From: Chitinophagaceae bacterium
GTDB lineage: Bacteria > Bacteroidota > Bacteroidia > Chitinophagales > Chitinophagaceae
DNA: 64,000 bases
Assembly (NCBI GenBank): GCA_947379895.1
Contig: CANCPA010000001.1
Span: forward strand, 6,286 to 70,285
Reading direction: 5' to 3'
Shown here: positions 1,896 through 47,630 of the stretch, piece by piece
Position numbering within the stretch: the first letter of the stretch is position 1
Layout of the letters: each line of letters starts with the position of its first letter
The notes under the pieces: generated by a model
The model's database searches: none
What the model was told of the DNA's origin: nothing
Seen by the model: only the letters and a program-made list of their open reading frames with translations
Translations under genes and position numbers: made by a program

Positions 1896-2384
1896 TTAGA
1901 TTATCAATTGCATAAAAACAAGATCTAGCCATCTATCAAATTTATAACCCACCTCTTTAATACGTCCTGCTTCCACAAAGCCAAACTGATGATGAAAGGC
2001 ACAACTCTTTTCATTAGATGCATCAATGCCTGCAATCATTGTATGGAATCCACTATGCTTTGCAGCAGCTATTAACGATGTCAACAATTGTTTACCAATT
2101 CCCATTCCCTGAAAATCTACATGTACATATATTGAATGTTCTATACTGTACTTATAAGCAGTCCAAGCCCTAAAAGGGCCAAAAGTACCATAAGCGACTG
2201 CCTGATTATTCATTTCACAAACTAATACAGGAAAGCCATCTGCAATTTTTTTTTCAAACCAAGTTTCAACAAATTCAATATTTCGAGGATAATAATCATA
2301 GATAGCGGTAGTATTTTCTATTGCTTCATTCATTATTTCAAGAATAACAGGCAAATCCTTTATTACTGCGTTTCTTATTATCAT
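1896..2384 (-). CDS. GNAT N-acetyltransferase, phosphinothricin acetyltransferase (Pat/YncA)-like
   Basis: EHSIYV...QGMGIG...N..S..FH...GF...VGYKFDRWLD motifs. Start placed at ATG 2384 because a TATATTTG -7 box lies at 2390-2397 on the minus strand. Confidence 0.9.
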   Translation of the reverse strand: MIIRNAVIKDLPVILEIMNEAIENTTAIYDYYPRNIEFVETWFEKKIADGFPVLVCEMNNQAVAYGTFGPFRAWTAYKYSIEHSIYVHVDFQGMGIGKQLLTSLIAAAKHSGFHTMIAGIDASNEKSCAFHHQFGFVEAGRIKEVGYKFDRWLDLVFMQLII

Positions 2385-2586
2385 AGTGCCAAATATAGAA
2401 AAATGTGTTAGTAATTGTTTCAAGACTTCAAATTCAACTTAACTTAAACATTCATTGCTTCATAAAGAAACCTGAATATTCATCCTGACATTTTTGGAAT
2501 AAAAAAATCTATTCTCCATTTTCGTATCTAATTTAAGGTAAAATTCGTACGGCAATTTCAATTCCGTGTCAAAGTGTCAAAATAAA

Positions 2587-2838
2587 CTCATGAGTTAAGC
2601 GACGCAACTTATAAGTTAAGCGACGCAACTTATAAGTTAAGCGACGCAACTTATAAGTTAAGCGACGCAACCTATGAGTTTAGCGAAAAAACCTATCGGT
2701 TAAGCTATAAAACCTATGAGTTAAATCACACAGCTTATGAGTTAAACTACAAAACCTAATGGTTTAGCGACATAACTTAAGGGTAAAACCACAAGACCTA
2801 TCAGTTAAACGGCAAAACCCATAAGTAAAACGAGAAAG
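2587..2838. repeat. Tandem array of 12 x 21-bp units
   Basis: Units 2-4 are identical (CTTATAAGTTAAGCGACGCAA); units 5-12 are progressively more degenerate. Unit positions 1 (C), 4 (A), 8 (G), 9 (T) and 12 (A) are invariant. Confidence 0.95.
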
Positions 2839-2886: not shown

Positions 2887-2894
2887 TATATTTG
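2887..2894 (+). promoter_or_regulatory. Bacteroidota housekeeping -7 promoter element for asnS
   Basis: TATATTTG matches TAnnTTTG and ends 21 nt before ATG 2916. Confidence 0.65.
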
Positions 2895-2915: not shown

Positions 2916-4364
2916 ATGTTTAACAATAGAGTTAAGATTAAGCAATTGCTTGGAAGCGAGCAAACAGGACATGAGGTTGTTGTAATGGGATGGGTACGTA
3001 CTTTCCGAAACAATCAGTTTATAGCATTAAATGATGGCAGTACTAACAATAACCTTCAAGTAGTGGTTGAATTGGGTTTGCTTGACGACAATACACTAAA
3101 AAGATTAACAACAGGTGCTTCTATCAAGGTAACAGGAGAAGTGGTTGCTAGTCTTGGAAAAGGACAAAAGGTAGAAGTTAAAGCTAAGACCCTTGAGATT
3201 TTAGGTGACAGTGATGCAGAGAAATATCCCTTGCAACCTAAGAAACATAGTTTAGAATTTTTGAGAGAAAAAGCACATTTGCGTTTTCGTACGAACACTT
3301 TTGGGTCTGTATTTCGTTTACGTCATGCATTAGCATTTGCGGTACATCAGTTTTTTAATGAAAAAGGGTTTGTTTACCTTAATACACCGATCATTACCTC
3401 GAGCGATGCAGAAGGTGCAGGCGAAATGTTTAGAGTTACAACACTTCCACTTGAAAATCCTCCTTTAAACCAAGATGGTAGCATCAACTATACCGAAGAT
3501 TTTTTTGGGAAGAGTACAAATCTAACTGTAAGCGGTCAGTTAGAAGGTGAACTTGGAGCGATGGCATTTAGCGAAATCTATACTTTTGGTCCTACATTCA
3601 GGGCAGAGAATTCAAATACTACCCGTCACCTTGCAGAGTTTTGGATGATTGAACCAGAAGTTGCCTTCAACGACCTTGAGGATAATATGAATCTTGCTGA
3701 AGAGTTTATTCAATATTTGATTCGATATGCCATGAAGCATAATTTGGAAGATCTTGAATTTTTAGACCAACGTTTAGCAGAAGAAGAAAAACAAAAACCT
3801 GTAAACGAAAGAAGCGAATTAGGTTTATTGGACAAGCTTCGTTTTGTTGTTGACAATCAATTTGAAAGAATTACTTATACTGAAGCCATACAGATTCTTT
3901 TAGATAGTCCTGCTTACAAGAAAAAGAAATTTAAGTATGAAGTAGGATGGGGAATTGATATGCAGAGCGAACATGAACGCTATTTGGTAGAAAAGCATTT
4001 CAAGAAACCTGTAATTGTTACAGGATACCCTGCTGCAATCAAGGCGTTTTATATGCGTTTGAATGATAATTGTGAAGAAGGAAGACAAACAGTGGCTGCT
4101 ATGGACATTTTAGCACCTGGTATTGGTGAAATAGTGGGTGGAAGTCAGCGGGAAGAAAGAATTGACAAATTAGAAAAGCGGATGCAAGAAATGCATATTC
4201 CACTTGAAGAAATGAGCTGGTATTTGGATACACGCCGTTTTGGTTCAGTACCACATGCAGGTTTTGGATTAGGTTTCGAGCGCATGGTACAATTTGTTAC
4301 AGGCATGACAAATATCCGTGACGTAATTGCCTTTGCAAGAACTCCGAATAATTGTGAATATTAA
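2916..4364 (+). CDS. asnS: Asparagine--tRNA ligase
   Basis: OB fold (GWVRTFR...FIALNDGS), class II motif [21 protein letters not shown], and [11 protein letters not shown]. Confidence 0.97.
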
Positions 4365-4478
4365 GCTAGTTACTAGTTGCAAGTTGCAAGTTACTAGATG
4401 CAAGTTCTAGATACAGGTAATTGATTTAGGAAGTCTAAATTCGCTTACTAATAACTTGTAACTTATAACCTGCAACCA
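4365..4478. repeat. Inverted heptamer-array element between asnS and ctaA
   Basis: GCTAGTT ACTAGTT GCAAGTT GCAAGTT ACTAGAT GCAAGTT starts right after the stop codon; the complementary arm is AACTTGT AACTTAT AACCTGC AAC. Confidence 0.85.
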
Positions 4479-30947: not shown

Positions 30948-31157
30948 TTAAGAGACGTCTTTAAGGAATTAAGAGAACGCTTTAAGATAGTAAGAGAACT
31001 CGTAAGCATATTAAGAGACGACCTAATTAAGCGAAGAGAACTCGTAACTGAGTTAATAGACGATGTAATAGTATTAAGCGATTTCGTAATAAACTAAAGA
31101 GACTACGTAGATGAGTTTGCTGAACTCGTTAGTGAATAAAAAGACGTCTTAATACAA
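30948..31157. repeat. Degenerate tandem array of 10 x 21-bp units
   Basis: Units such as TTAAGAGACGTCTTTAAGGAA, TTAAGAGAACGCTTTAAGATA and TTAAGAGACGACCTAATTAAG. GA is invariant at unit positions 7-8 in all ten units. Confidence 0.9.
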
Positions 31158-31702
31158 CCACAATGCATCTTAAACTAGTAAACAAATGAATCATCCTGCC
31201 CTTAAGCATCCTTTACAATGGTGAACAGTTGCGATTTGAGAGAAGAAGGAAAGGTAAGCTGGTTTTAGGATTGGGTAAAAGAAAAAATCTGCATTCTGCA
31301 CCAAAACGGTGGCAGTATTTAAATGGGCAATTTTTTTCACTTTTTTCATGTTGTAAATATCCCACTTAATAAGGAGTGGCAAATCTAAATTTCAATACAA
31401 CCCAAATAATAGGGCAATAAACACAATATGATTCCGCATTCCGACAAATAAATCAAGGTTTTCGGTAAATTATTTAAATAATCTACAATATTTGACAAAA
31501 TAAATATAAACAACAATACAAAATAACGGTTGATTAATAAGGTTTTGTAAAATAACATAGTATCAAATACTAGATTCCTTTGGCAATTTAAACTGTCTAG
31601 TTGTGTCGCAATTTCGAATATCTCATCTAGCGTACTACTAATAAATGAGAATGACCTGCTTTTCATTTCAGGTATATTCTGCATAAAAAAGAAAGAAGAC
31701 AT

Positions 31703-47441: not shown

Positions 47442-47630
47442 TTCAATTATTTCATCGAGGATTTCCAATATCTGTACCGGACCTTCGAAAGTCGAAATTA
47501 GGCTTTCGAAGGTCCGGTACAGATATTGGAAAAAAAATGACTTTTCTTATATTTTCTCCATCAATAATTCTATTCCCAGAATATGACTTTCGAAGAAATC
47601 AGCGACATATTCTAAGACAATTGACTAACA
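47442..47630. repeat. Cryptic 21-bp-periodic array (9 units)
   Basis: TT(C)NAW recurs at 47442, 47463, 47484, 47505, 47526, 47547, 47568, 47589 and 47610. TT, the position-5 A and the position-6 W are present in 9/9; position-3 C in 7/9. Confidence 0.65.
47462..47532. repeat. Perfect 30-bp inverted repeat with an 11-nt loop
   Basis: TTTCCAATATCTGTACCGGACCTTCGAAAG-TCGAAATTAGG-CTTTCGAAGGTCCGGTACAGATATTGGAAA. Confidence 0.97.

Follow-up and report, generated by a model that had tools for sequence, protein, structure and literature searches.

The GNAT-asnS locus

The window, by which we mean the complete stretch of 64,000 nucleotides analysed here, carries a tandem array of twelve 21-bp units in the spacer between two divergently oriented genes, one for a GNAT acetyltransferase and the other, asnS, for asparaginyl-tRNA synthetase. 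The features needed for the description are listed below, with positions counted from the first letter of the window.

1896-2384, minus strand: GNAT acetyltransferase gene, divergent from asnS
2566-2581, plus strand: direct repeat, two copies of GTGTCAAA, abutting the array
2587-2838, plus strand: tandem array of 12 x 21 bp with master unit CTTATAAGTTAAGCGACGCAA, non-coding
2606-2617, no strand assigned: first perfect 12-bp palindrome AACTTATAAGTT, with a unit boundary inside it; repeats at 21-bp intervals
2608-2670, plus strand: units 2-4, identical, a recent local amplification; the homologous C2 array holds this unit once
2671-2838, plus strand: units 5-12, eight older diverged units, several with colinear counterparts in G000:C2:29715-29920
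2887-2894, plus strand: TATATTTG, putative -7 promoter box, 21 bp before the asnS ATG
2916-4364, plus strand: asnS, asparaginyl-tRNA synthetase, 482 aa
30948-31160, plus strand: second array of the same class, period of about 21 bp with indels, dyad AGACGTCT

To the left of the array lie the GNAT gene and a gene of the beta-lactamase family, both on the minus strand, and to the right asnS, a CtaA homologue and, at a distance of 2.8 kb, a TetR-family gene. No rep or par genes are found near the array (within 5 kb for par), and the contig comprises at least 70 kb of chromosomal genes. The genome measures 5.3 Mb at 34.5% GC; the best named relatives of its AsnS come from MAGs labelled Sediminibacterium and Chitinophagaceae (86-74% identity), which points to a Chitinophagales-like member of the Bacteroidota. 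The box TATATTTG at 2887-2894 fits TAnnTTTG, which we take to be the Bacteroidota -7 promoter consensus, and presumably acts as the asnS promoter. Since the array lies upstream of this putative box, it is probably outside the asnS mRNA.

Structure and reading frames of the array

The earlier note described twelve units of exactly 21 bp without a single indel. Both Tandem Repeats Finder (TRF), with 0% indels in its 21- and 63-bp rows, and the self-match of the array confirm this: the match reaches 0.76 at lag 21, falls to 0.30 and 0.32 at lags 20 and 22, and stays at the background value of 0.32 at lag 7. Each unit is laid out as the 12-bp palindrome AACTTATAAGTT followed by AAGCGACGC. Because this perfect palindrome occurs at each unit boundary, the array matches its own minus strand as well. 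A CRISPR array was considered and rejected, as the units abut and have no spacers between them.

Unit 1 is two positions off the master unit, and units 5-12 have 12-16 of their 21 bases in common with it; for units 1 to 12 in order, the identity to the master is 19, 21, 21, 21, 15, 14, 14, 16, 14, 12, 15 and 13 of 21. Three identical copies near one end of the array are thus present as claimed (units 2-4, 2608-2670), with the limit that in an assembly of 401 contigs identical units may have been collapsed, so that three is maybe a lower bound. The polarised decay that had been seen in these units is only partly borne out: identical units do lie near one end, but what follows is a step and no gradient (Spearman rho -0.58, p=0.10, units 4-12). 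Furthermore, the homologous C2 array described below has its identical run at the opposite end (units 7 and 8 are the same, unit 9 has the same core), and therefore polarity is no property of the array family. The window and C2 arrays have each amplified a different unit, so the apparent polarity is a matter of local history.

One plus frame does read as T-Y-x-L-S/N-x-x heptads, as noted before; it lacks a start codon and, after 56 codons, runs into four in-phase TAA stops. A fully open frame across the array is found on neither strand. A coding heptad repeat or pseudogene was rejected, given these four stops in the best frame, the spacers of relatives (142-192 bp), which hold no heptad ORF, and the variable positions of the unit (2, 3, 6, 11, 12, 14, 15, 17 and 19 in the 57-unit logo presented below), whose spacing is not codon-like. 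The view that the array is not a decayed ORF consequently stands, and it is firmly shown that the array is non-coding DNA.

The spacer in related species

In the five closest species that keep both genes adjacent, the GNAT-asnS spacer is 142-192 bp long and does not contain the 21-bp array. Across the genus, the conserved part of the spacer is limited to the last ~45 bp before the asnS start, TATATTTG included. Within it, ...cctcctgcttatatttgccgc... is conserved in L006, L007 and L008 and more loosely in L010, and L009 and L011 have only a reduced tatttttgcg/atatttgcg form of the promoter-proximal block. As the array is missing from the spacer of the closest species, it must have arisen or been inserted after the split from the closest sampled relatives, and it cannot be regarded as a conserved element of the GNAT/asnS promoter region. 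That it is no conserved regulator of asnS or GNAT is firmly shown; judging from these spacers, the array is not needed for either gene.

Heptamer runs take the place of the 21-bp array in the spacers of L006, L007, L009, L010 and L011, and the heptamer word varies from species to species. The runs have inverted arms in the first four of these, giving a long hairpin (e.g. GATATGA x3 ... TAATATC x3), and consist of direct CACTAAT/AACTAAC-type repeats only in L011. Heptamer runs are also seen in the window itself, at 4366-4469, two bases past the asnS stop (CTAGTTA, ACTTATA and 14-bp variants); these are typical of the heptamer class treated below.

A dispersed family of homologous arrays

A BLAST search yields two further homologous arrays in the same genome (G000), at C2:29715-29920 (78% identity) and at C30:3617-3748. 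Together with related units in other species, they contradict the possibility, named in the earlier note, that the array would be unique to its locus. The window and C2 arrays are colinear unit by unit: their first units are identical, window units 6, 7, 8 and 11 pair with C2 units 3, 4, 5 and 10, and the two arrays differ by whole units. The score of this colinear path was reached by only 24 of 2000 permutations. Between the window, C2 and C30 arrays the homology is confined to the units and ends where the arrays end. At the family arrays in this genome we found no leader, tail or target-site duplication and no TIRs beyond the unit palindromes, and the repeat GTGTCAAA, considered as a shared flank motif or leader, is inconsistent in position and orientation across these arrays. 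The genes flanking the C2 array are convergent and those flanking the C30 array co-oriented, so that divergent, convergent and co-oriented spacers are all represented. The genes next to these two arrays are unrelated (an esterase, a sulfatase and a T9SS cargo protein), and none of the family arrays has a linked DNA-binding gene.

In the sister species G013 we count three to four related arrays, which occupy different loci. Orthology of arrays between G000 and G013 or G009 could be resolved at few loci, the genomes being rearranged and fragmented. The spacer orthologous to that of the C2 array is short and array-free in G013. The one orthologous to that of the C30 array (contig C28 of G013) does contain a 21-bp array, in which AAGCGAC-AAA and the dyad are kept and the core differs (CCGAGGTCTCGG); G000:C30 and G013:C28 form the one array locus with resolvable orthology and arrays in both species.

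A logo built from 57 distinct units, taken from seven related arrays in two species, has its information on AAC, AT, R-GTT and the A-run. The family palindrome follows the consensus AAC-YK-AT-NR-GTT, and the unit can be described as a core AAC-N6-GTT, then AGCGAC and an A-run. A conserved core of about 14 nt had been proposed from the window array. Within that array alone such a core is not significant (chi-square p=0.14), but at the level of the family logo information is indeed concentrated.

Related units extend to G054, a genome from another family of the order, where at least three arrays have a unit that is identical at 16-17 of 21 positions. This is the best match among all 124 unit consensuses of the present genome, and a value of 17 was reached by none of 5000 shuffles. 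Three G054 arrays are located at contig ends. Two arrays of a related unit CTTCTAAGTTTAACGACAAAA in G054 (L196:1400-1500 and L198:1359-1460) share ~100 bp of flank on one side, which may be a leader like that of BrickBuilt, the 23-nt minisatellite-MITE of Porphyromonas gingivalis (PMC4596501). A search of 400 genomes sampled from across the phylum did not recover the family unit. Scans of metagenome contigs with two adjacent master units or with a degenerate two-unit pattern gave no matches, and neither did a distant blastn against plasmid and phage collections.

It is firmly shown, then, that the window array is a member of a small dispersed family inside a larger lineage-wide satellite class. 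Also shown is that it changes by whole units, as exemplified by the recent three-fold copy of one unit.

The array at 30948-31160 had earlier been linked to the one at 2587. Both indeed belong to the same class; that they belong to the same family is not demonstrable, with a best circular match of 13/21 (P=0.03), another dyad (AGACGTCT) and indels in the second array. Its sequence rather suggests a different or very distant family. Elsewhere in the window, positions 47442-47630 hold a 30-bp inverted repeat, CCAATATCTGTACCGGACCTTCGAAAG ... CTTTCGAAGGTCCGGTACAGATATTGG.

A genome-wide 21-bp rule

The genome contains about 230 period-21 arrays and a further 90 or so with a period of 42, 63 or 84, nearly all of them intergenic and with many unrelated unit sequences. 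A TRF run on the whole genome gives 2012 rows, of which 308 have period 7, 348 period 14, 361 period 21, 87 period 42, 22 period 63 and 26 period 84; periods 20 and 22 account for 19 rows each. Merging leaves 1426 arrays, and for 743 of these the best period is a multiple of 7. According to a crude ORF map 625 of the 743 are intergenic, in a genome that is only ~20% intergenic. All arrays with a period of 7n, the heptamer classes included, cover 58.6 kb or ~1% of the genome.

The recurrence of exact 8-mers in intergenic DNA, a count that does not depend on TRF, shows the same rule: there are 2456 recurrences at distance 21, 2425 at 42, 984 at 63 and 1044 at 84, against ~100-230 at neighbouring distances (148 at 20, 227 at 22). 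No peaks occur at distances of 10-11 or 31-32 in this count. Of the intergenic arrays that measure 60 bp or more, 154 follow a period of 21n versus 14 with any other period from 15 to 27. Spikes at 21n are likewise present in samples of two other members of the genus and in a sample of a complete genome from another family of the order, and 21-bp-phased arrays occur in three further genomes of the order. The 21n arrays occupy long spacers irrespective of type, approximately in line with spacer length, and turn over fast between relatives, with some orthologous loci being array-free. These results show that the true unit in this class is always 21 bp or a multiple, and that the class is lineage-wide and intergenic. 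In the literature that could be searched there is no description of such a rule; heptamer repeats and BrickBuilt are described instead.

Arrays of heptamers have to be kept apart from this class. The idea that 21 bp simply represents three heptamers was rejected: there is no lag-7 signal in 110 of the 124 period-21n arrays, and the super-period of heptamer arrays is 14 bp, not 21 bp. The period-14 arrays are all derived from heptamers (lag-7 match 0.68). Heptamer arrays also have a placement of their own, at a median of 30 bp past stop codons and rarely in divergent spacers (17/287).

All four genes with a PF05635 domain (23S rRNA intervening-sequence protein; G000:C150:8109-8555, C282:2501-3068, C51:7968-8430 and C341:54-431) adjoin arrays of period 7 or 14. 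At C150 (GTGGTTA runs) and C282 (heptamer hairpins) arrays are present on both sides of the gene, at C51 and C341 on one side only, where for C341 the upstream side is cut by the contig end. The arrays beside these genes belong to the heptamer class and not to the class of the window array.

Two other types of repeat were observed. A 66-bp module made of three 21-bp units (AGTATTGGCAAAAACGCTCGC...) is present in four copies (G000:C100:5931-5996, C191:5318-5383, C6:47889-47954 and C83:20061-20126), with at least 60 bp of conserved flank on each side, from which we conclude that some 21-bp repeats are parts of a larger dispersed element. Additionally, G000 has a separate class with a period of 41 bp (and 82-83 bp), e.g. 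at C21:26911-27128, with 22 arrays of at least 60 bp; arrays of this type also occur in G013 and, in a relative, at L011:657-888.

Tests for function and selection

Dyad symmetry is enriched in the class: a score of 6 or more complementary pairs out of 7 is reached by 9 of 25 true 21-mer consensus units, versus 6.6% of shuffled units. The genome has many phased dyads, of which AAC/GTT is one, and a universal AAC/GTT arm was therefore rejected. A comparison of dyad cores with spacers inside 14 arrays showed no stronger conservation of the cores (p=0.53). Indels are not avoided in 21n arrays either, the ratio of indels to mismatches being 0.09 against 0.115 at other periods; as the ratio is like that of other periods, there is no detectable selection for keeping phase.

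Compared with their own shuffles, likewise repeated at 21 bp, real units show no excess of curvature (median percentile 0.6, KS p=0.16). From wedge parameters, the 252-bp window array is predicted to be strongly bent, its end-to-end distance over contour length being 0.34 compared to 0.90 +/- 0.06 for shuffles. Any 21-bp array, including the one in the window, is however predicted to be bent because of its period alone.

No bias was seen in the orientation of arrays relative to flanking genes (33:21, p=0.13), and a bias in strand composition relative to flanking genes or local GC skew is absent or weak. The window array folds better than shuffles with z -5.8 on one strand and -5.3 on the opposite strand, and folding that is equally good on both strands is as expected from DNA palindromes. 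The window has no Rfam match at the gathering threshold. The genome has five PF01797 (Y1 transposase) genes, none of which adjoins a 21-bp array; the two that were inspected have IS200/IS605-like hairpin ends. A RAYT/REP link was rejected, as these transposases are of the ordinary IS200/IS605 kind and all units have the same orientation.

Comparison with known repeat systems

Several known systems resemble the arrays in part. Iterons of the R6K/P1 type and sopC of F, which consists of 12 x 43 bp with a dyad, have in common with the window array that direct repeats of about two (or four) helical turns carry a dyad per unit and that there are about twelve units; both would work as lattices of phased dimer-binding sites. 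The window array differs in having no partner rep or par gene, in its chromosomal housekeeping context, in being one of hundreds and in being missing from relatives.

REP and BIME elements are, like the 21-bp arrays, dispersed families of short palindromic extragenic units. BIME units alternate in orientation and have no fixed period, and REPs flank a RAYT gene, whereas the 21-bp units are strictly direct and the Y1 transposases of this genome are IS200/IS605-like and unlinked to them.

With BrickBuilt (PMC4596501) the arrays share their occurrence in Bacteroidota, a strictly intergenic position, head-to-tail units of about two turns with nothing between them, numerous dispersed copies and a narrow range of hosts. 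As in BrickBuilt, the dispersed intergenic copies are polymorphic between close genomes: we count three arrays in G000 and three to four in G013, with empty orthologous sites. BrickBuilt, on the other hand, is a single family whose members have leader and tail subunits as well as small inverted-repeat ends, whereas the present arrays comprise dozens of unrelated unit families of exactly 21 bp, with no leader, tail, TIR or TSD found in this genome. Heptamer intergenic repeats such as the TAACTGA repeats and the cyanobacterial STRR (PMC4679880) are similar in being lineage-specific, intergenic, sporadic and missing from the shorter orthologous spacers of close relatives. The unit of these LSSR/STRR repeats is 7 nt, and the window array has no 7-nt sub-structure.

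Explanations for the 21-bp arrays

The explanation that we favour, tentatively and short of calling it probable, is a self-expanding satellite in which a dimeric DNA-binding protein docks on the dyad cores, once per two helical turns. The dyad-symmetric core would be the docking site for a dimeric DNA-binding or recombination protein, and a spacing of 21 bp, equal to two helical turns, would bring successive dimers onto one face of the DNA to form a cooperative lattice. Stalling or recombination at the lattice might then add or remove units in register. Such gain and loss would account for unrelated sequences sharing one unit length. An effect on the expression of asnS or GNAT, through the predicted bending of the DNA or through promoters being moved apart in two-turn steps, would be a by-product.

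We prefer this lattice because of the exact double-turn period, the enriched dyads, the positions that are conserved across arrays, species and families, and the orthologous array in which period and dyad are kept. The emphasis of the earlier note on two-turn spacing as the key feature has thus proved justified. Its phased protein-binding array survives in the general sense of a lattice, as a best guess rather than a proven one, but not in the form of an iteron or centromere, given that rep and par genes are missing and that there are hundreds of arrays. Against the lattice stand the cores that are not better conserved, the missing indel avoidance and curvature excess, the lack of a linked DNA-binding gene and the fact that arrays are dispensable at orthologous loci. 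Also, many unrelated cores would require many readers, or one reader of DNA shape. Helical phase alone would moreover predict periods of 10-11 and 31-32; both are missing, which counts against the lattice too.

Nearly as likely is that the arrays are of purely mutational origin and form a neutral or selfish satellite without any protein reader: replication or repair in this lineage would favour duplications of 21 bp, palindromic units would be over-represented only through hairpins that stabilise the slipped intermediates, and units would now and then spread horizontally. This explanation fits the negative selection tests better (no excess of core conservation, no indel avoidance, no selection for curvature), and it agrees with the fast turnover, the arrays missing at orthologous loci, a placement that follows intergenic length and the absence of orientation bias. 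The higher-order units of 42, 63 and 84 bp are typical of satellites under unequal exchange, and for heptamer repeats Mrazek 2007 (as cited in PMC4679880) proposed a length preference related to the polymerase. It does lack a known mechanism, in that no 21-bp ruler is known that would exclude 14, 28, 18 and 24. A near-identical unit in another family and position-specific conservation across arrays would further require horizontal transfer or constraint, and the orthologous array keeps its period and dyad despite a changed core.

A non-autonomous mobile element of the BrickBuilt type, i.e. a minisatellite inside a MITE that is moved by a transposase in trans, we regard as improbable. A whole array copied with colinear units to a non-homologous locus, presence and absence that differ between sister species, a patchy distribution that includes another family of the order and the ~100 bp 'leader' flanking two G054 arrays all speak for mobility, and BrickBuilt itself provides a precedent in Bacteroidota (PMC4596501). 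As the units are palindromic, any block of an array would have inverted-repeat-like ends. Yet the homology stops at the array ends, and a leader or tail, TIR and TSD are lacking in this genome, where the five Y1 transposase genes are ordinary IS200/IS605 copies that do not lie beside 21-bp arrays. Mobility would account for dispersal and not for the 21 bp common to unrelated families.

It is very unlikely that the array is a locus-specific cis-regulator of asnS and/or GNAT, either as an operator array or as bent DNA that activates from upstream. Its position would suit such a role (the putative asnS -7 box follows 49 bp downstream, and GNAT is ~200 bp away), as would the strong bend predicted above; but the array is missing in five close species that keep the promoter-proximal block, and homologous arrays lie between convergent genes and beside unrelated genes. 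Still less likely is a transcribed and processed repeat RNA, another proposal of the earlier note that finds no support here: the significantly better folding is matched by the same excess on the opposite strand, there is no Rfam family and no orientation bias, and the array lies upstream of the likely asnS promoter. Least likely of all are plasmid-type iterons, a partition centromere or a decayed heptad-repeat gene, for although the unit length is typical of iterons, twelve dyad units recall sopC and the young units have one open frame, neither rep nor par genes are found, the surroundings are chromosomal housekeeping genes, plasmids and phages give no matches, arrays number in the hundreds, the closest species lack the array, relatives have no ORF and the variable positions are not codon-like. 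That the window array is neither an iteron nor a centromere is firmly shown.

Implications

Tandem repeats in bacterial intergenic DNA are usually dismissed as slippage noise or regarded as contingency loci. In the present genome a single 21-bp rule, corresponding to two turns of the helix, governs hundreds of unrelated arrays, and the rule is found in every genome whose period spectrum was sampled (two of the genus and one of another family). Some unit sequences are even common to distant genera. What the present analysis adds is the separation from heptamer repeats, a unit family that spans taxonomic families, an orthologous array in which the period is the same but the core differs, and a set of negative tests.

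For annotation this means that the window array should not be labelled as an asnS operator, an iteron or an RNA gene. For assembly it is relevant that arrays of this kind break short-read assemblies, compare the three G054 arrays at contig ends.

One length rule over unrelated arrays, combined with shared units, calls for a specific cause, which could be a protein that reads DNA in steps of 21 bp or a ruler in replication or repair. We consider it possible, if rather unlikely, that Chitinophagales-like Bacteroidota have an undescribed system (a DNA-binding or recombination protein, or a replication ruler) that creates and maintains 21-bp-spaced lattices on the chromosome, with unit families such as AAC-N6-GTT + AGCGAC exchanged or conserved across taxonomic families; the arrays would in that case not be junk but a new type of chromosome-organising or self-propagating element. 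The cause, if found, would account for a considerable part of the non-coding DNA in these abundant environmental bacteria.
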